This document shows, piece after piece, positions 9,135 through 27,110 of a DNA stretch of 64,000 nt. How positions within the stretch are numbered: position 1 is the first letter of the stretch; every line of letters starts with the position of its first letter. The notes beneath the pieces are model-generated. The model saw nothing but the letters and a program-made list of their open reading frames with translations. It ran no database searches and was not told where the DNA came from. Location of the stretch: assembly GCA_963664245.1 (NCBI GenBank), contig OY760934.1, positions 232,242 through 296,241 on the forward strand. The letters are read 5' to 3'. Source of the DNA: Bacteroidales bacterium. Its GTDB lineage: Bacteria > Bacteroidota > Bacteroidia > Bacteroidales > GCA-2711565. Made by a program: the position numbers and the translations under genes.

Positions 9135-9298
9135 GGGGTGCAAAAATATTTTGGTCAGCTTTAGCTGAATGTGATCCAACGTTTTATGGTATGGTGTCGT
9201 GGGGGATTATGGGGCGAAAACGTATCCGTTTACACTGACTTTTTTTTACGAGCCACAAACGCTTAAAAACCGCTGAAACCCGCATGCACTATACCATT
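9135..9298. repeat. Conserved 3' cassette-flank element, copy A (split by the IS; continues at 10999-11010)
   Basis: Shares ordered blocks with 21164-21324. These include GTCAGCTTTAGCTGAATGTGATCCAACG (9154-9181), which is 27/28 identical to 21175-21202. Confidence 0.6.
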
Positions 9299-10998
9299 TG
9301 TGTCTGTTGCACAAAGGCATTAAAATAAATAAATTGCAATTTGGTTAATACTTTTTTTCATCCCTAATAATTCAGGTTTTGATTACTTTATGCATTTAAT
9401 TTCAATAAAAAAGGCTTGAATAGCATTATATGAAGCGAAAAAACCAGCAATTTGCTCATATATATAGGCCATTTGAGCCTTTACCTTGGTCTCGTACTTA
9501 TTGACATTATATTTTAGTAATTTCTTCAAGTTATAAGCACAGGCAGCCATGTGAACCACTTTATTGGCTTGGGCAATACCCAAAGTATTGATTTTTCGTA
9601 ATCCCAGGTATTGAGTAAGGTTTCCCCAAGCTGGTTCTACTGTTGATTGCCGTTTACCCTTCATTTTTCTGCCCCATTTACTATTTACCCTCTCATTATT
9701 CCGTATGTATTCATCCAAATAGGCTGTTATTGCGATCTTTTTTTCATGAGACTTTCCGATACATACACTTCTGCTGGGGCAATCTTTACAATCGCTTCGC
9801 CGGGTATAGTAATGGTTTTGTAAAGAGTCATTGCTATGCTTTTGCTTTTTAAATATTACCCTTTTGCCTTGTGGGCATAACCAATAGTTTTGTTCCTTTA
9901 TAAAAGTAAAACCCTCTGGGCCACCTTTAAACGTTCCATGTTTTGGAATGTAACTAAGTATATGTTCTTGTTCCAGAAACTGATAATTATCTCCGCTACT
10001 ATAACCAGCATCAGCTAGAATATTAGTCCATAACAGCCCTAATCTCCATAAACGCTTATGGGTTCTCTTAACGATATCTTGTAAGTTCTTGCTGTCCACT
10101 CTATCGGCATGATAAGCCTGTACATCACTTATTACATTGAAGGCCGTATCTACGGTAATGTTCCCGTGATAGTTTAGCTTACGGGATTTTCCCGGCTTTA
10201 CACTAATGCGAGCATCAGGATCGGTAGGACTATAATGGGTTTTGTTACTGGTGTATTTAGAACGCTTAGAATTAGCCCCTTGCCGCGTGTTTTGGGTTGT
10301 TTTCCATTTTTTCTGCCGTGCTGCTATTTCATTAAGTTCATCTTTATTTGCAGAAACCTGTCTTTGTGCCAGGTTTGCTTTATTCTTTTTTGCTTTTCGT
10401 ATTGGTTGTTGGTCTCCATTGGAGATAGCCCTTATTCTGGTTAAATATTCTTCCAGCTCTTCTTCTGGTACTTTTAGCTCTAAGCTATCCATACTTGCAT
10501 TGGCTTTAATAGGAGCAGAATCGGTTGCTTGGGTATGCCCACTCACAAGCCCACTATCAACACATAAAGCAAATATCTTTGTAAAAACAGTTTCAAAGAC
10601 ACCCTCTGGAAATAACTGGCGAGTACGGCTAACAGTACTATGCCACGGTAAGGGTTCATCTATATTATATCCAAGAAAATACAAAATATCTAAACGCATG
10701 GAGCAATGTGCTATCAACTTACGATCACTTACAATATTTTCTAAATAGCCAACAATGCATAATTTAAAAAAGACACGCGGGTCTATACTTTTTTGTCCAC
10801 AACCACCATAATATGGCGCAGTTTGTTTGAGGAGAAAATCCAAATTCAGGATCGACTTTAACCTACGGTAAAAGTTCTGCTCTGGCACAACCTGGCTTAG
10901 TTGGAAACTGACAAATAGTTTTTCTTGGTATTCTTTATTCCCTTGCATGACGTAAGTTAATAATATTTTGCCTATTTCTTTGTTGTGCAACAGTTACA
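9299..10998 (-). mobile_element. IS1182-like insertion sequence (~1.7 kb)
   Basis: Terminal inverted repeats TGTGTCTGTTGCACAA (9299-9314) and TTGTGCAACAGTTACA (10983-10998), with an 11-nt perfect core CTGTTGCACAA. Single transposase ORF. TGTGT occurs at 9299-9303 and 10999-11003, which is either a 5-bp target duplication or part of the IR. Confidence 0.75.
9383..10948 (-). CDS. IS1182/IS5-type DDE transposase
   Basis: N-terminal MQGNKEYQEKLFVSFQLSQVVPEQNFYRRLK ... DPRVFFKLCIVGYLENI, typical of IS1182-group transposases. DDE region around ADAGYSSGDNY. The ATG at 10948 is preferred over the TTG at 10990 in the ORF track. Confidence 0.85.
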   Translation of the reverse strand: MQGNKEYQEKLFVSFQLSQVVPEQNFYRRLKSILNLDFLLKQTAPYYGGCGQKSIDPRVFFKLCIVGYLENIVSDRKLIAHCSMRLDILYFLGYNIDEPLPWHSTVSRTRQLFPEGVFETVFTKIFALCVDSGLVSGHTQATDSAPIKANASMDSLELKVPEEELEEYLTRIRAISNGDQQPIRKAKKNKANLAQRQVSANKDELNEIAARQKKWKTTQNTRQGANSKRSKYTSNKTHYSPTDPDARISVKPGKSRKLNYHGNITVDTAFNVISDVQAYHADRVDSKNLQDIVKRTHKRLWRLGLLWTNILADAGYSSGDNYQFLEQEHILSYIPKHGTFKGGPEGFTFIKEQNYWLCPQGKRVIFKKQKHSNDSLQNHYYTRRSDCKDCPSRSVCIGKSHEKKIAITAYLDEYIRNNERVNSKWGRKMKGKRQSTVEPAWGNLTQYLGLRKINTLGIAQANKVVHMAACAYNLKKLLKYNVNKYETKVKAQMAYIYEQIAGFFASYNAIQAFFIEIKCIK

Positions 10999-11001
10999 TG
11001 T

Positions 11002-11016
11002 GTTGGCTGCTGGGTT
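11002..11016. repeat. Cassette-1 inverted repeat, 3' arm
   Basis: GTTGGCTGCTGGGTT ends 1 nt before the stop codon (11017-11019). Its partner is the rc of 12373-12387, GTTGGCTGCAAGTTT (12/15 identical, first 9 perfect). Confidence 0.55.
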
Positions 11017-12345
11017 TTATAGTAATTGTTTTAATTCTTCCCTTATCACCGAAGGTTTTTCTGCTGTCGCATCGATAATAAATCCTTTATCATCAATCAA
11101 AATATATCTCGGAAAAGCTTTTGCATTATAATCATCATTAAATTTATGTGTTGCCCCTTCAGTACAAAGATTAATGGTATTTAATTCAAATTCTTTTATT
11201 TTACTTAACCATTTTTCTTTGTCATTATCAGCTGATATCGATACAAAAATGATATTTTCATTCTTCAATTCATCAGAAAGCTTTTTCATTTCGGGCATCT
11301 CTCTTATGCAAGGTCCACAAAATGAGCTCCAACAATCTATGTATACAAATTTACCCAGAAAGTCCGAAAGCTTAACAATATTTCCGTTGTTATCTATTAT
11401 CTCAAATTCAGGAGCCTTTTTTCCTGTTGCAAGCTTGCTCCAATTATTATATTTCCCTGTCAGGTAATCTTTTTGTCCTTTGTCTTTCATAATTGCCAGA
11501 AAGTCATCGCATATACTATCAATTCCATCAATACCATTAAGATTTATTTGACTATTAATCTCTCTGAGCATTATATCTTCGAATATTTCTCTTTCAGTAA
11601 ATATTTCCTTTGCAAGAGTGTATTTGTCATTTAATTCTTTTGCCCTGAAATCTAAATAAGATATTAAAGTTGACTTGTAATCATTGAATTTGAAGAGTTC
11701 TTTATTGTTAGTTTCTATCTGGTCAGTGAATTTGTAATAATTATCAGGAAGTTCAGGTTTAATTTTAGTGAGCATCTCATAAAAACCTGGATACCCAAAT
11801 TGTTGGTTAATCCAAAAGTAATTGATAAGCAGATTTTCTGTGTTGTAGAAAGAATTAGATATTTTGGGATTCAATTTTTGGTAATCATTCAAATGTTTTA
11901 TTCTAATCTGCTTAACACTATCTATTTTTTCTATAAATTTTTCAGGCTCAGAAGAAAACAGAGCAATATCAATTTTTCTTGGGTCGTCAAATCCTAAATC
12001 CATTATTAAGTTCATTTTCTTATATAAAAACTCACTTTCTTCAAAACCAAGCCCGGAAAATTGAATTTGTTTAGACCTTTCATAATCTATAAAAATGCTA
12101 TCACCAAATTCTACAAAAAGAGGAATCCACTCATCTAATTTCAAGTCAATGTAATTTTCTGCTCTAATATTAAAACTAAATCTACCATTAACAATAGTAT
12201 CCATGTAAGTTGAATCAGCTGTTTTTACTTCTGCAATTGCTACTTCAGAATTCCTCAAAAAACCAACAATCTTGATTGTGCGATTGTCTTTATTACTGCA
12301 TCCCAAAATCAAGATACATAAGCTTAAAATCAATAATTTTCTCAT
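11017..12345 (-). CDS. Thioredoxin-fold (TlpA/ResA-like) lipoprotein
   Basis: Lipoprotein signal MRKLLILSLCILILGCS. C-terminal thioredoxin fold with CxxC motif WSSFCGPC. AT-rich. Confidence 0.75.
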   Translation of the reverse strand: MRKLLILSLCILILGCSNKDNRTIKIVGFLRNSEVAIAEVKTADSTYMDTIVNGRFSFNIRAENYIDLKLDEWIPLFVEFGDSIFIDYERSKQIQFSGLGFEESEFLYKKMNLIMDLGFDDPRKIDIALFSSEPEKFIEKIDSVKQIRIKHLNDYQKLNPKISNSFYNTENLLINYFWINQQFGYPGFYEMLTKIKPELPDNYYKFTDQIETNNKELFKFNDYKSTLISYLDFRAKELNDKYTLAKEIFTEREIFEDIMLREINSQINLNGIDGIDSICDDFLAIMKDKGQKDYLTGKYNNWSKLATGKKAPEFEIIDNNGNIVKLSDFLGKFVYIDCWSSFCGPCIREMPEMKKLSDELKNENIIFVSISADNDKEKWLSKIKEFELNTINLCTEGATHKFNDDYNAKAFPRYILIDDKGFIIDATAEKPSVIREELKQLL

Positions 12346-12372
12346 AATTATATTTTTTGTAGGATGTTTCTT

Positions 12373-12387
12373 AAACTTGCAGCCAAC
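12373..12387. repeat. Cassette-1 inverted repeat, 5' arm
   Basis: aaacttgcagccaac is the rc of GTTGGCTGCAAGTTT. Lies 28 nt upstream of the ATG at 12345. Confidence 0.55.
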
Positions 12388-12520
12388 TTATATATAAACC
12401 AGTGTGTGTTATTTTACTTATATATTTCAATAATTCTCCTGGTGAATTAATCAAAAATTATCAACCCAAATGCTGGGGAGAAGCATTTTCCACAAAATCA
12501 AATATAAGAAATTTTATTAA
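12383..12520 (-). promoter_or_regulatory. Promoter + 5' leader module L1
   Basis: On the minus strand there is a -7 box TATATTTG (12499-12506). Next comes the hairpin AAATGCT-TCTCCCC-AGCATTT (12468-12488). The proximal 49 nt (12383-12431) are about 41/49 identical to 22171-22220. Confidence 0.55.
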
Positions 12521-21163: not shown

Positions 21164-21324
21164 GGGGGCAAAAAGTCAGCTTTAGCTGAATGTGATTCAA
21201 CGGATGGCGGTATGAAATCGTTGGGGATTGCGTGCGATTTACTATCAAGGTACATGGAAAGTTGAAGCGGGCTAAAAACCTTCGCATACCATGAAACCCT
21301 TATTGGCTATATTGTGTGTTGGCA
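21164..21324. repeat. Conserved 3' cassette-flank element, copy B (intact)
   Basis: Blocks GGGGGCAAAAA, GTCAGCTTTAGCTGAATGTGATTCAACG (21175-21202), GGTATG, TCGTTGGGGATT, GCTAAAAACC, CGCATACCAT and TGTGTTGGC occur in the same order as in copy A. Confidence 0.6.
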
Positions 21325-21332
21325 TTAGTACT
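21301..21332. repeat. Cassette-2 inverted repeat, 3' arm
   Basis: TATTGGCT-N9-GTTGGCATTAGTACT, ending 3 nt before the stop codon (21336-21338). Confidence 0.6.
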
Positions 21333-22160: not shown

Positions 22161-22192
22161 AGTATTAATACCAACGTATGTACAAACCAATA
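22161..22192. repeat. Cassette-2 inverted repeat, 5' arm
   Basis: The rc reads TATTGGTT-N9-GTTGGTATTAATACT and directly abuts the ATG. The inner 15-mer is 13/15 identical and the outer 8-mer 7/8 identical to the 3' arm. Confidence 0.6.
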
Positions 22193-22310
22193 TGTGTTAT
22201 TTTTCTTATGTCTTTTCAATATCATTATTTATTCCGCAGCTTTGTACGAGAACAAGTCTTAATGCCGGGGGAGAAGCATTATTTCAAATATAAAAAATAA
22301 ACCATTATGA
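22171..22310 (-). promoter_or_regulatory. Promoter + 5' leader module L2
   Basis: On the minus strand there is a -7 box TATATTTG (22285-22292). The hairpin is AATGC-TTCTCCCCCG-GCATT (22261-22280). The proximal 50 nt are homologous to L1. Confidence 0.55.
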
Positions 22311-22332
22311 ATTTAATATCCATAGTTGGTTT
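22299..22332 (-). terminator. Candidate intrinsic terminator of the upstream three-gene operon
   Basis: The minus strand reads AAACCAACTATG-gatattaaatt-CATAATGGTTT followed by ATTTTTT. The stem is 6+4 bp with a small internal loop. The first arm overlaps the stop codon. Confidence 0.45.
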
Positions 22333-23206: not shown

Positions 23207-25228
23207 TTATAATACTTTTATAAGTAAACGAAAATTCTTGACTTCCTGCACCAAGTTGTTCAGTTCTTTTAATTGTACATATTCCTCTTTATCAATGAAG
23301 TCTTTTGTAATTATATAACTTGATTGTATTACAAGTTCATCGTTTGATGAACCTAAGCTTATCTGAAAAAAATATTCTCCTACATCGTTTTTAATACTCC
23401 TGTTAAAATCTTCAAGATTTAACACCTTAATATCACGTGGGAATTTCAGGTTAAATGTACTTACATCGCTATAGCTATAATCCAAATAATAATTCAAGTC
23501 AATAGAATCTTTTTCGCTTTCAATTTTGCTGTTTCGTATTAATTTATCCAGGGTAATACTAATCATATTATCACTTATAAATGTGACTGAATTTTTGATT
23601 GTGCCTTTTGCATTGAAATTGTATAAAAAAGGAGCTGTGTTTTTAAAAGTAATATTCGTAATGGTGTCAATTTCTAAAGCAGTTTTATCATCTTCAAATT
23701 TGGCAAATGCACTATAATAATCATTCATTTCCTGGTTTTTATCAAGCATACTAAAGAACCTTCTTAAATCCGTTGATAATCCGCCGGAAATCCTTAAGCT
23801 TGAATTAAAAGTGGTGTTTTTGTTTTCAATATCTACATCACAATAGATATACTGATTCAGATAATTTAAATTGGCATTCATCCCCGGCAAGGTGATTAAA
23901 TTAATTTGAACAGAATCTGCTTCTGCCACTTCTAAGTCATAATTAATGTACTTGTCTTTTGCCTTAATTTTACCCTCTAAAAACGGTTGTGCGATAACGG
24001 CTTTTGTATTATAAAGTGATGTTGGGATTTCATTAATCTGATATTTGTAATTTACATCGTGTGGGTACAAAAAGCTAAGAAATCCCTTGCCATTTTCATA
24101 TGCAAAAAATATGTGATCAAATTCCCCTTTTCTGATATAGCCCGGGTCAATCTCTCCCGATCGTTTACTACGGGCAAATACGGCCCAATATTTAATGTTT
24201 AAGTCCTCTAACAATTGACGGTATAAGCGTCGGATACTTATAGGATCAAAACGCTGTTCTTTTAAAAAGTATCCAGTGGATTTTATAAATTCTTCTTCTT
24301 TCGGTTCTTCTATTGCGAAATTTTTAAGAATGTCGTTATGTAGAAGCTCGAATTTGTAATATTTGCTACTGTCTTTTTCGTCATCAATAATTCTTTTTTT
24401 CCAGCGACGGTAGTACGATTTTTTTTCATAGTCTAGTGATAAAGGTTGGGTCATGTAATTAAATTCCTGGTTGTAAACATCTTTCCAGTTTCTAATATCA
24501 TCGTCCTTATTGTTAACCGAATAAAAGATATAGGGTAATTCGCAGGGCAAACAGGTGTAGTTGTTTCCTTCCAAAGCTTTAACCTCTTTCATTTTAAATA
24601 CACAATAAATTAGGGTGTCATTTACCAATACCTGAGGTTTAGGAAATCCATTGTACTCTTTATACATAATGACCAGATTGGGAGGAGTTTGAATGGTGTA
24701 TTCGGTATTTAAACTGGGAATGGCATTGAATAGGTTTACAAAATCCCCTAGTTCATAAAGTTTTAACTTATGGGTATACGTATACTTAATTTCAATCGTA
24801 TCTCCTGCTTCAACCCCGGGAATCGGAAAATTTATCAGATCTGTTTGTTCTTCTTTTTTTTGGCGATTTAAAATAAGGCTTGAATCTAATTTTACGATGC
24901 TTCCGTCTGACTTTAATGTTTTAATAGTTATAGTACTTAAATCATCTATGGTTGATTTACTTAGACTTAGAAATGCAAACTTGTCAACCCCGGATTTATT
25001 ATTAATTACAATTTTATTTTGGAAAGAAACATGTCTTCTGTAATTCCTCCATGATTTACTGTAAGCAACATCTGTATATGAATATAACATGTAAGCATCA
25101 GCGTTTTTACACACTTCGCTAAATGGTTGTTTAGGAATACTGTCATTGGCAAAAACACCGATGCAAATAAAGCTTAGACAAAAGAGAAGGTGCTGTTTAA
25201 ATTTTGTTTTCGAGAATAATGGGCTCAT
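23207..25228 (-). CDS. Large secreted protein of unknown function (possibly a DUF3857/DUF3858-type partner of the adjacent transglutaminase-like protein)
   Basis: Signal peptide ...HLLFCLSFICIGVFA; 673 aa; AT-rich. The family guess comes only from the typical Bacteroidota gene pairing. Confidence 0.45.
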   Translation of the reverse strand: MSPLFSKTKFKQHLLFCLSFICIGVFANDSIPKQPFSEVCKNADAYMLYSYTDVAYSKSWRNYRRHVSFQNKIVINNKSGVDKFAFLSLSKSTIDDLSTITIKTLKSDGSIVKLDSSLILNRQKKEEQTDLINFPIPGVEAGDTIEIKYTYTHKLKLYELGDFVNLFNAIPSLNTEYTIQTPPNLVIMYKEYNGFPKPQVLVNDTLIYCVFKMKEVKALEGNNYTCLPCELPYIFYSVNNKDDDIRNWKDVYNQEFNYMTQPLSLDYEKKSYYRRWKKRIIDDEKDSSKYYKFELLHNDILKNFAIEEPKEEEFIKSTGYFLKEQRFDPISIRRLYRQLLEDLNIKYWAVFARSKRSGEIDPGYIRKGEFDHIFFAYENGKGFLSFLYPHDVNYKYQINEIPTSLYNTKAVIAQPFLEGKIKAKDKYINYDLEVAEADSVQINLITLPGMNANLNYLNQYIYCDVDIENKNTTFNSSLRISGGLSTDLRRFFSMLDKNQEMNDYYSAFAKFEDDKTALEIDTITNITFKNTAPFLYNFNAKGTIKNSVTFISDNMISITLDKLIRNSKIESEKDSIDLNYYLDYSYSDVSTFNLKFPRDIKVLNLEDFNRSIKNDVGEYFFQISLGSSNDELVIQSSYIITKDFIDKEEYVQLKELNNLVQEVKNFRLLIKVL

Positions 25229-27023
25229 TGATTATTTTTTTGTACGATTTCAGTATTTCGTTTATTGTATTAAGGTTTTCTTTTTTAATGAAGATGTAAT
25301 CAAGAATAAACTCGTAGTTACATTCTATTATAGAATCAGCCGGGTTGCTTATCTTCAGGTCAAGGGAAACACCTTTATCTGAGAATGAATGTTCAATCTG
25401 CTTAAATGCGTTAAAAGGTTCCTGCATTTTAATTGTCAGCTTAACTTTTTTATCGATTGTGCTACCCAGGTGTGTTCCTTCAAGCAGGGTTTCCCTGTTT
25501 TCTGTATCTATTAAACGGGGTAAAAAGTCGATGAATAAATATCGGCTATCATTATCTTTAAATATTTTCAGATCGACAGATAGCTTGCCTTCAATATTAA
25601 CCGTGTCAGAATGGCTGTTAACCGTGAGCGCTGTTACCGATTGGTTGTTAAATATCAATTCATAATACTTTTTTCCGATACATTCTCTTTCATCTTCTTT
25701 GCTGCCATAAAACATCCATTTTAAAAAGTTTCCGGAAATGCCAGTGTAAATAGCTTTAAATTTCCCTTGTAACGATTTGCCAGAATCTGTATTTAACTCA
25801 ACTTCGTAGTTGATTATATTGTCTTGAGGTGCAAATCTGTTTAATTTATAATATTCCCCGCCATCGGGATTGAGAATTAGGATTGTTTTTTCCTGAATGC
25901 TTTGAACAGGGGTTCCCGGTATATGAATCGGATCCGTTGGATCCAGCACAATAGGTTTGTTATTTAAATATGCCACGCATACAATATGATTAGCCGAACA
26001 TAAGGCCGGGAAATCGCAATCGCAAATATGGTGAAACGTAGCTGCTAGTGCAATATGGCTTTTAATTCCTTTGTAATTTAAGGCTTCGCAAAGGAAATTT
26101 GATAAGTCTTTACAATCACCATGTTTGTTTTTAAAAACTTCATTTACATGCGATGGAATAAATGCGCCTATGCCTATCTCAATGGCGACATATTTAAAAT
26201 TTGTTCTTACATAATTATAAAGGGTGTTTGCGATTTCGGTTGAGTCGGTTATGCCATTTGTTATTTCGTTAATTTTATTTATAGCTAATGAATCTAGGCC
26301 TCTTACAGTCTCTACTTTACGGAGAAACCAGTTGTTTAAATATTCGGTTTTATTTTCACCCGAAGCCGTTGGAATAACCGTTGTTCTTATTAGTGGAGCC
26401 CTTATGTCTCTATAAATGCCAAAGTACATCATAAAGTCAGGTTCTACTTTAACCGGAACTGCTTTAAAACGAAACTGCATTTGATTGTTAAATTTAGAAG
26501 AATCAATAAGCAGATATTTCAAAGAATCTATATATAATGTATTGTAAAAAAAATGGTGTGTTTCAGGTATTGTAATCTGGTAATCTAGGGTGTCAGCATT
26601 ATCATAGTTGAATAGGGGTAAATCACAGAAATATCTTAATTCTTTACATGAAACTCTATAGGTGATTTTTGCTTCAGTTTCAGCAGGAATGATAATGGAC
26701 TTTACTCTTTTACTGGAAATTAATTCAGAGTTGAAATCTTCATTGTGAATAATTGGGTCTTCCAGGATTTTAAACCGCTTTCCTTTTTTAATATATACCT
26801 TAATGCCAGATATTCTTTCTAACTCATAATCATAGAAAATAGGAAAAATACTTTCTTCAGAACTTTGTTTGATGAGTACACTAATATTTCTATTGAATAC
26901 AGTGTCGTTTACTATTTCAATATGTTCAGTTTTTGTACTGATGTTTAAATCCCGGGCTAATCCCGGAATGTGAATTGAAAATAATAAAACTGCCAAGATT
27001 GAATTAATCGTAGAACCTTTCAA
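25197..27023 (-). CDS. Secreted transglutaminase-like (cysteine-protease fold) domain protein
   Basis: The core KHGDCKDLSNFLCEAL carries a catalytic-type Cys. N-terminal signal. The track start is a TTG, so the exact start is uncertain. Confidence 0.6.
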   Translation of the reverse strand: MKGSTINSILAVLLFSIHIPGLARDLNISTKTEHIEIVNDTVFNRNISVLIKQSSEESIFPIFYDYELERISGIKVYIKKGKRFKILEDPIIHNEDFNSELISSKRVKSIIIPAETEAKITYRVSCKELRYFCDLPLFNYDNADTLDYQITIPETHHFFYNTLYIDSLKYLLIDSSKFNNQMQFRFKAVPVKVEPDFMMYFGIYRDIRAPLIRTTVIPTASGENKTEYLNNWFLRKVETVRGLDSLAINKINEITNGITDSTEIANTLYNYVRTNFKYVAIEIGIGAFIPSHVNEVFKNKHGDCKDLSNFLCEALNYKGIKSHIALAATFHHICDCDFPALCSANHIVCVAYLNNKPIVLDPTDPIHIPGTPVQSIQEKTILILNPDGGEYYKLNRFAPQDNIINYEVELNTDSGKSLQGKFKAIYTGISGNFLKWMFYGSKEDERECIGKKYYELIFNNQSVTALTVNSHSDTVNIEGKLSVDLKIFKDNDSRYLFIDFLPRLIDTENRETLLEGTHLGSTIDKKVKLTIKMQEPFNAFKQIEHSFSDKGVSLDLKISNPADSIIECNYEFILDYIFIKKENLNTINEILKSYKKIINEPIILENKI

Positions 27024-27068
27024 ACCTATTAAAAATTAAAACCATTGTTCATAATATAATTATCCCTA

Positions 27069-27110
27069 ATGCCGGGGAGAAGCATCAAGTCAAATATATA
27101 AAATAAATCA
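27069..27110 (-). promoter_or_regulatory. Promoter + leader hairpin module L3
   Basis: On the minus strand there is a -7 box TATATTTG (27091-27098) followed by ATGC-TTCTCCCCG-GCAT (27069-27085). This is the same core as in L1 and L2. Confidence 0.5.

Follow-up and report, generated by a model that had tools for sequence, protein, structure and literature searches.

The gene for a redoxin-type lipoprotein and the two inverted arms that flank it most probably constitute one gene cassette in a system of integron-like, site-specific recombination with a wide distribution in Bacteroidota, and we put the probability of this reading at about 0.8. The gene lies in a 64-kb stretch of Bacteroidales DNA (the window), which also holds a second unit with a different cargo; the two are called unit A and unit B, and their cassettes cassette A and cassette B. 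From sequence comparison, the arms appear to be the two halves into which the crossover at G|TT divides the outer (R) box of a folded attC-like site. The features of both units are as follows, where R1 is our covariance model of the attC-like site.

9154-9179, minus strand: first ~26 nt of the ORF-less cassette X (TTGGATCACATTCAGCTAAAGCTGAC), the right flank common to both units, here in unit A
9173-9303, minus strand: attC-like site A, distal piece (L'' box, loop, L' box, R' = G|TTGGATC), R1 score 88 bits
9304-10993, minus strand: insertion sequence (IS) of 1690 bp in the attC-like spacer of unit A, with terminal inverted repeats CTGTTGCACAA
10994-11016, minus strand: attC-like site A, proximal piece (R'' box and some of the spacer), separated from the rest by the IS
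11002-11016, minus strand: 3' arm of cassette A, which is the R'' box and reads AACCCAGCAGCCAAC in the coding strand, immediately 3' of the stop codon
11017-12345, minus strand: cargo A, a 442-aa Redoxin/AhpC-TSA (TlpA-like) lipoprotein, from domain matches
12373-12387, minus strand: 5' arm and start of cassette A (G|TTGGCTGCAAGTTT), from arm pairing; homology to locus L142 starts here
12388-12520, minus strand: leader A, with the TATATTTG box at 12499-12506 and the hairpin AAATGCTTCTCCCCAGCATTT at 12468-12488
21175-21200, minus strand: remnant of the start of cassette X behind cassette B, from the flank alignment
21194-21331, minus strand: attC-like site of cassette B, including its 3' arm at 21318-21331, R1 score 81.5 bits
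21336-22160, minus strand: cargo B, a lipoprotein of 274 aa that weakly matches RHS/YD repeats in the domain search
22162-22175, minus strand: 5' arm of cassette B (GTTGGTATTAATAC), from arm pairing
22176-22330, minus strand: leader B, with the same modules as leader A, from sequence comparison

The arms of cassette A described in the initial annotation were verified in the window sequence, with their coordinates, their sequences, an identity of 12/15 and a perfect match over positions 1-9. The 3' arm, GTTGGCTGCTGGGTT (11002-11016), adjoins the stop codon of the ORF at 11017-12345 on the minus strand. The 5' arm, which reads GTTGGCTGCAAGTTT as the reverse complement of 12373-12387, lies 27 nt 5' of the ATG of cargo A, whose Redoxin, AhpC-TSA and Thioredoxin_8 domains follow a lipoprotein-type signal peptide. 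The arms of unit B, GTTGGCATTAGTAC (21318-21331) and GTTGGTATTAATAC (the reverse complement of 22162-22175), are identical at 12 of 14 positions. A leader of ~140 nt (12383-12520 and 22171-22300) and a 3' element had been described as common to the two units, and both are real. The sharing of the 3' element stands, but the element of unit A is not intact; it is split by the 1690-bp IS, with its other part at 9154-9303. The transposase of this IS (9383-10990) has the domains DDE_Tnp_1_6, DUF772 and DDE_Tnp_1, and the IS is no part of the cassette system. When the IS is removed, the 3' element of unit A aligns with that of unit B up to TGTGTTGGC, and site A forms a single long hairpin of -21.2 kcal/mol. 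The attC-like site, the IS and the relation to integron cassettes had all been overlooked in the earlier account of unit A and are supplied here. The crossover falls between 9180 and 9179 in the distal piece of site A and between 21201 and 21200 in the site of cassette B, and at the 5' end of cassette A it would lie between 12387 and 12386. An exact 9-nt inverted repeat across an ORF is by itself not rare in the window, being found between the 60-nt flanks of 2 of the 50 ORFs, with 8 nt in 8 more. The significance of the arms comes from their anchoring at GTT/AAC beside conserved flanks and from their replication at other loci, not from the length of 9 nt.

The 3' element is an imperfect palindrome of ~135 nt of the integron attC type with a stem of 17 pairs. 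In the orientation of the cargo, the site consists of the arm ending in AAC, a spacer of ~4 nt, the L'' box, the loop, the L' box, a spacer of ~6 nt and G|TT, which opens the next cassette. In an alignment of 11 palindromes, 12 of the 17 stem pairs showed compensatory changes. Over 54 sites, 95.1% of the cells were paired compared with 77.2% in shuffles (0/500), double changes were found in 174 cells compared with 52, and slid controls gave a pairing of 25-54%. The model contains 21 pairs, 14 of which have changes on both sides. R1 detected only these two sites in the 64-kb window and ~30 more in the fetched loci, where they lie in one orientation per locus, 0.5-1 kb apart, one behind each small gene. 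The leader and the 3' element matched no Rfam family at gathering or permissive thresholds.

When species-representative genomes were queried with the 22-nt invariant core of the 3' element, 12 loci were obtained from Hanstruepera (Flavobacteriaceae), a Marinilabiliales MAG and 'Virgibacillus' contigs, the last of which are probably misbinned. In these loci the core is the end of a multicopy element of ~280 nt, element X, which adjoins an imperfect palindrome of ~135 nt followed by a gene on the opposite strand. Element X proved to be a cassette without an ORF: its 12-nt arms (GTTGAATCACAT) match perfectly and lie 52 nt apart, and it has a hairpin of its own, 204 nt long, which a perfect stem of 17 bp closes (z = -7.95). 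In view of these arms and this hairpin, we dropped the candidate interpretations of X as the end of a group II intron, as an IS with a guide RNA or as an IS1111-type element.

The arms were tabulated for 39 cassettes from 13 loci. Cognate arms were identical at 10.9 of 14 positions, whereas non-cognate arms were identical at 7.0 of 14, and perfect runs of at least 9 were present in 52% of the cognate pairs compared with 0.6% of the non-cognate pairs. The 7-mers following GTT were of 34 different kinds. Since the arms are complementary within each cargo while so many different 7-mers occur, it is the inverted-repeat relation that is conserved, and not the sequence. The initial annotation had inferred from two cargos that each keeps its own self-complementary arm pair, and had proposed such a tabulation from further instances of the flanks; the outcome is as it predicted. 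Between consecutive sites, the 10-14 nt after the GTT at the head are the reverse complement of the 10-14 nt before the AAC at the tail, as in the pairs GTTACCACAC, GTTGTACCAC, GTTAGCGGTA, GTTGTGCAAC and GTTGGCAATA; the first bases of a cassette are thus complementary to its own R'' box, with the crossover at G|TT. Only GTT and R at position 4 are conserved in the R box (for example GTTGGCT, GTTACCA and GTTGTAC), positions 5-10 being free and cassette-specific, and the pairing reaches 10-14 bp. At position 11 of the arms, G on the tail side faces A on the head side in 29 of the 39 cassettes. A homologue of cargo A with 72% identity has GTTAG/CTAAC where cassette A has GTTGG/CCAAC, so that arm position 4 differs in a compensatory way. 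Once cassettes are integrated in an array, each R box becomes a hybrid whose pairing is limited to CAAC/GTTG, and the full stem is present only in the circle.

The boundary of the cassette can be seen directly. The protein collection contained only 39 homologues of cargo A, one of which, with 87% identity, is encoded in an array with four R1 sites (L142, GCA_975959875.1). Its homology to the window starts exactly at G|TTGGCTGCAAGTTT, to the left of which L142 has an attC-like site and the window has the leader, and from G|TTGGCTGCAAGTTTAAGAAACA... onward the two are nearly identical. L142 retains the tail arm AAAACCAGCAGCCAAC. The docking slots of the window also vary among sister strains (UDG 98-99% identical). 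Behind the same leader, slot A carries cargos of 329, 210 and 45 aa, whereas slot B holds a single cassette that encodes proteins of 88 and 165 aa in two ORFs and includes an R1 site of its own, scored at 62 bits. All of these cargos have lipoprotein-type signal peptides. In comparison with the sister-strain locus L139, the variable part of slot B starts and ends at G|TT. Both comparisons, of the window with L142 and of slot B with L139, place the boundary of the cassette at G|TT. No significant R1 match was found in slot A of the sister strains, and the 21 nt before its G|TT differ among the strains, unlike what is expected for the fixed left half of an attI site. A 253-aa integrase encoded beside slot A in one strain (L135) was considered as the cassette recombinase and rejected, as it is paired with an IS91-type transposase.

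The same observations bear on an alternative in which the cassettes were built elsewhere and the slots are variable islets, exchanged here by homologous recombination through the conserved flanks (the leader at one end, the X remnant and the adjacent gene at the other), with the arms left as relics. Such exchange would need no recombinase in the window, and it would account for the extent of the segment replaced in slot A, which takes in the 21 nt to the left of G|TT and ~70 nt to the right of the attC-like site. It would also fit the damaged ends seen in two strains, one with a slot A cargo that lacks an attC-like site (L133) and one with arms that are not complementary (L135), as well as the IS inside the site of unit A. 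The exact coincidence of both ends of the variable part of slot B with G|TT speaks against it, and so does the presence of the same flanks around two different cassettes in unrelated parts of the chromosome. We regard this alternative as unlikely; it leaves the identity of the arms unchanged.

The strand on which the site can fold was evident from the non-Watson-Crick pairs. Two pairs of the stem are nearly always G.U (47/52 and 51/52 sites), and this holds for the antisense strand only, which is the + strand of the window; on the mRNA strand they would be A.C mismatches. The attC-like site therefore appears to fold properly only on the strand antisense to the cargo, a bias that points to the antisense strand as the folded substrate. 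In the arms of the 39 cassettes, positions without Watson-Crick pairing are G.T wobbles of the antisense strand in 54 cases and of the sense strand in 7. The initial annotation had left it open whether the arms act as a DNA site pair or as an RNA duplex. The former fits. The latter, in which the 5' UTR would pair with the 3' UTR of the mRNA and control the stability or translation of the cargo, draws on the fact that both arms lie in the expected transcript beside the start and stop codons. On the mRNA, however, the antisense wobbles of the arms would be A.C, which argues against an mRNA duplex, and the two invariant stem pairs are likewise antisense. Furthermore, the arms form the outer portion of a larger site, the second half of which is 130 nt away, and they move with the cassette boundary at G|TT. 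A role of the arms in mRNA pairing is thus very improbable.

Arrays of such cassettes beside a recombinase gene were found in other genomes. Three independent contexts were fetched, from Pontimicrobium, Algibacter and Aestuariivivens (L136, L137 and L138), each with a recombinase followed by a one-directional array of 10 kb; together they contain 28 R1 sites on the antisense strand. A Chryseobacterium plasmid (L147) has the same layout with four R1 sites, and genes for an IS110-family transposase and a group II intron reverse transcriptase lie within its array. All of these 28 + 4 sites are antisense, and all are downstream of the co-oriented recombinase except the site at 678-814 of L136, which is upstream of the recombinase and outside the array. 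In L002 and L006, co-oriented tyrosine recombinases of 393 and 375 aa head the array, with the stop codon ~40 nt before the first G|TT; this distance is about 40-60 nt where it was read. The combination of an array with an adjacent tyrosine recombinase gene and a putative attI-type site is seen in L002, L006, L136-L138 and L147, and the window has no recombinase, as tblastn found no Xer/IntI-like recombinase gene in its 64 kb. These loci point to the occurrence of the arrays in Flavobacteriaceae, in Weeksellaceae (on a plasmid) and in a Marinilabiliales-like genome.

The uniform direction of the cargos is also relevant to the notion that the arms bound an inverton of the size of a gene, which a DNA invertase would flip for phase variation. 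In Bacteroidota, a surface lipoprotein gene between short inverted repeats is a typical sign of phase variation, and the arms of cassette A would match this pattern; but at more than 50 sites the cargo always has the same orientation relative to the site and the array, no invertase is encoded nearby, and the 87% homologue has the same orientation, so that an inverton has hardly any probability left. Scarcely credible as well are terminal inverted repeats of a small transposon or MITE, or a chance match, for which the exact 9-nt repeats at 2 of the 50 window ORFs can be adduced, since no target-site or other flanking duplication was found at either unit and no transposase belongs to the arms, since the arms differ in nearly every cassette yet always start with GTT/AAC, and since perfect runs of 9 occur in so few of the non-cognate pairs.

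The recombinase of the arrays is an Xer-like tyrosine recombinase of 350-395 aa, homologues of which are common in Flavobacteriaceae under the source names 'tyrosine-type recombinase/integrase' or 'site-specific tyrosine recombinase/integron integrase'. These product names show only a likeness to Xer and IntI. Among relatives of solved structure, XerA (5hxy) ranks first and VchIntIA (2a3v) second. Residues 186-245 of VchIntIA correspond to 17 residues in the recombinase, and the alignment breaks there; the array recombinase lacks the IntI-specific insertion, which is described as essential for integron function (PMC8138268) and is expected of the integrase of a complete integron. With the NCBIfam integron integrase models it scored 214 bits against a cut-off of 265 (TIGR02249) and 151 against 435 (PRK15417). 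Judged by its sequence, it is not a classical IntI, and because the insertion is missing and the scores are below the cut-offs, the biochemistry of classical integrons cannot simply be assumed. The recombinase has an extra N-terminal beta/alpha domain of ~100 aa. Structure prediction followed by Foldseek matched only the Xer/IntI cores, with no match for the N-terminal domain.

Both cassettes of the window are solitary, each preceded by ...AAAATAAC and 21 nt ending at G|TT (12387-12415 at the end of leader A) and each with the first ~26 nt of X on its far side. This docking stretch is similar to the insertion sites that follow the recombinase genes of Flavobacteriaceae (CACATATAAC-NAG|TTG). 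We read the window as two copies of an attI-like site, each of which may have received one cassette that pushed the former right half to the far side. Upstream of the docking motif lies the leader hairpin, which can be written as AATGCTTCTCCCC(N)GGCATT. The TATATTTG box of the leader resembles TAnnTTTG, the -7 promoter element of Bacteroidota, and the leader may therefore act as a cassette promoter. It would then combine an attI-like docking site and a promoter module. In the sister strains, slot B lacks the promoter and hairpin part of leader B, and in the window this part is bracketed by GAAAAATAA repeats; it may itself be a small mobile module. A third, partial copy is present at 27068-27107. 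When the leader was examined as a folded attC site, no stable or conserved long-range fold was found, only the small hairpin. The Hanstruepera and Marinilabiliales loci contained no leader motifs, and a metagenome scan with the leader 18-mer AATAACACANANTGGTTT returned 120 loci, essentially all of them chance matches in coding DNA.

We propose that a cassette comprises a short 5' stretch, one cargo gene and the attC-like palindrome of ~135 nt. When the antisense strand becomes single-stranded, it would fold into the outer R box, an unpaired spacer, the 17-bp L stem and a variable loop. An Xer-like tyrosine recombinase, which we infer to act in this genome as well, would then cut between A and C of ..AA|C on the antisense strand, which is G|TT on the coding strand. 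This chemistry would split the R box, so that the distal half (TT and 8-12 nt) rides at the 5' end of the cassette, with the other half directly 3' of the stop codon. The arms would have to match because the crossover splits the R box and the excised circle needs a foldable site; the need to rebuild this site from complementary halves would also explain why the arms covary in a cassette-specific manner. In the window, a double-stranded attI-like site (...AAAATAAC-N21-G|TT) would be present twice, with a single cassette docked at each copy, and the far side of each cassette would be occupied by what was once the right half of the site (TTGRATCACATTCAGCTAAAGCTGAC, with which the ORF-less cassette starts). 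The expected circular junction is ...CCATACCATAAAACG|TTGGCTGCAAGTTT, and the expected empty slot is ...TATATATAAG|TTGGATCACATT.

A literature search found no description of these cassette arrays. According to surveys, integrons are nearly absent from Bacteroidetes, where IntegronFinder 2.0 finds complete ones in Salinibacter only (PMC9024848). We tentatively consider, at somewhat less than even odds, that the arrays represent an undescribed integron-like class of the Bacteroidota's own. Its Xer-type recombinase, lacking the IntI domain, may use the N-terminal domain instead; the outer stem of 10-14 bp would serve as a cassette-specific address that pairs fully only in the circle; and promoter-bearing orphan docks at scattered places in the chromosome would allow strains to swap single surface-lipoprotein genes. 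If confirmed, the system would widen the range of recombination through single-stranded hairpins to a recombinase without the domain held necessary for folded attC sites, and it would provide a handle on cassettes that may escape current integron finders, among them ones with beta-lactamase-fold, acetyltransferase, toxin-antitoxin and defence-like genes. It would also account for the strain-level turnover of surface lipoproteins in these bacteria, and the cassette-specific arms would offer a natural test of how R-box pairing affects the balance of excision and insertion.

Integrons are the textbook device of gene capture, and the present system resembles them in many respects. Compact, mostly promoterless cassettes form one-directional arrays, and each cassette is terminated by an imperfect palindrome in which outer R and inner L boxes surround a variable loop. 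Crossover takes place at G|TT, and the first bases of the cassette complement its own R'' box. The antisense strand folds preferentially; Bouvier in 2005 and MacDonald in 2006 are said to have found that integron attC sites recombine as folded bottom strands. The array is headed by a tyrosine recombinase and an insertion site that does not fold, some cassettes are without an ORF, and the arrays harbour genes of IS110-family elements and group II introns. In contrast to integrons, the recombinase is Xer-like, with the archaeal XerA as its nearest solved relative, lacks a counterpart of VchIntIA residues 186-245, carries the extra N-terminal domain of ~100 aa and is co-oriented with the cassettes. 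The sites of ~135 nt have a consensus of their own, and the R box is a cassette-specific stretch of 10-14 bp, not the 7-bp consensus RYYYAAC/GTTRRRY. The system works like an integron but, since the IntI domain and the 7-bp R box are two defining features that it lacks, it is not filed as a classical one.

The window also resembles CALINs (single attC sites without an integrase) and cassettes inserted at secondary genomic sites (attG), concepts described in PMC9024848 and 10.1101/2022.09.11.507474. As in these, attC-type sites with cargo lie outside arrays with no integrase nearby, the window having two R1 sites and no integron integrase within its 64 kb. The docking places differ from CALINs and attG sites in sharing the 140-nt leader and the right flank and in carrying different cassettes in sister strains, as reusable sites would. 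The pdif modules of Acinetobacter plasmids likewise involve the Xer-type family and genes bracketed by inverted recombination sites. Their dif-like sites are double-stranded and 28 bp long (11-6-11), whereas the site described here is a strand-specific hairpin of 135 nt that occurs once per cassette.

In unit A, the solitary cassette carrying a redoxin lipoprotein gene, an insertion sequence (IS) of 1690 bp interrupts the attC-like site, having inserted into the spacer between the outer R'' and inner L'' boxes of the site. A target duplication is possible, although imperfect (CATTTGTGT / TACATGTGT).

Window 9304-10993: IS, 1690 bp, with terminal repeats CTGTTGCACAA
Window 9383-10990, minus strand: IS transposase, DDE_Tnp_1_6/DUF772

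In one sister strain, two genes lie paired directly downstream of slot A, and the tyrosine recombinase shares 39% identity with the Xer-like array recombinase across the catalytic domain.

L135 7192-9056 (= L141 11192-13056): IS91-family Y2 transposase and 253-aa tyrosine recombinase

Leader B, which lies upstream of slot B, contains a promoter-like and hairpin segment that is bracketed by GAAAAATAA direct repeats and, compared with sister strains, is inserted sequence (window 22196-22330 versus L139 870-910). In those strains the 291-aa gene has its stop codon within the AAAATAAC docking motif. The promoter-like box and hairpin occur a third time (GATGCTTCTCCCCGGCATT) at window 27068-27107, upstream of a transglutaminase-like gene (25197-27023, minus strand); this copy is accompanied by neither a docking motif nor a cassette.

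Docking at a distance from the platform is seen again in a Flavobacteriaceae array locus, where a solitary cassette lies outside the array, 9 kb upstream of the recombinase.

L136 240-814: solitary cassette, 144-aa gene and a site matching the attC-like covariance model R1 (66.8 bits)

Every cargo seen in slots A and B (window, L133, L134, and L139) begins with a lipoprotein-type signal peptide (...LGC, ...FSC, ...QSC, ...SSC, or ...ASC). Among the cargos of the Flavobacteriaceae arrays are GNAT acetyltransferases, beta-lactamase-fold proteins, HipA/PIN toxin-antitoxin genes, and an nSTAND3 NTPase. Bacteroidota-type sites and the ORF-less cassette element X were also present on contigs binned as a Virgibacillus MAG (L005, L008, and L010), with the recombinase as well in L008; their assignment to Virgibacillus is probably a binning error.

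Reverse transcriptase (RT) genes of group II introns were detected in or adjoining arrays, as was a transposase gene of the IS110 family (L145 12830-13338; L147 13272-17054; L141 19864-20585). An RVT_1 gene in L145 starts 6 nt past an R1 site, and in the Chryseobacterium plasmid locus L147 the IS110-family gene and an ltrA gene sit between cassettes. Classical integrons are hosts of IS1111-attC elements and group IIC-attC introns, and the arrays described here likewise host IS110-family and group II intron RT genes.
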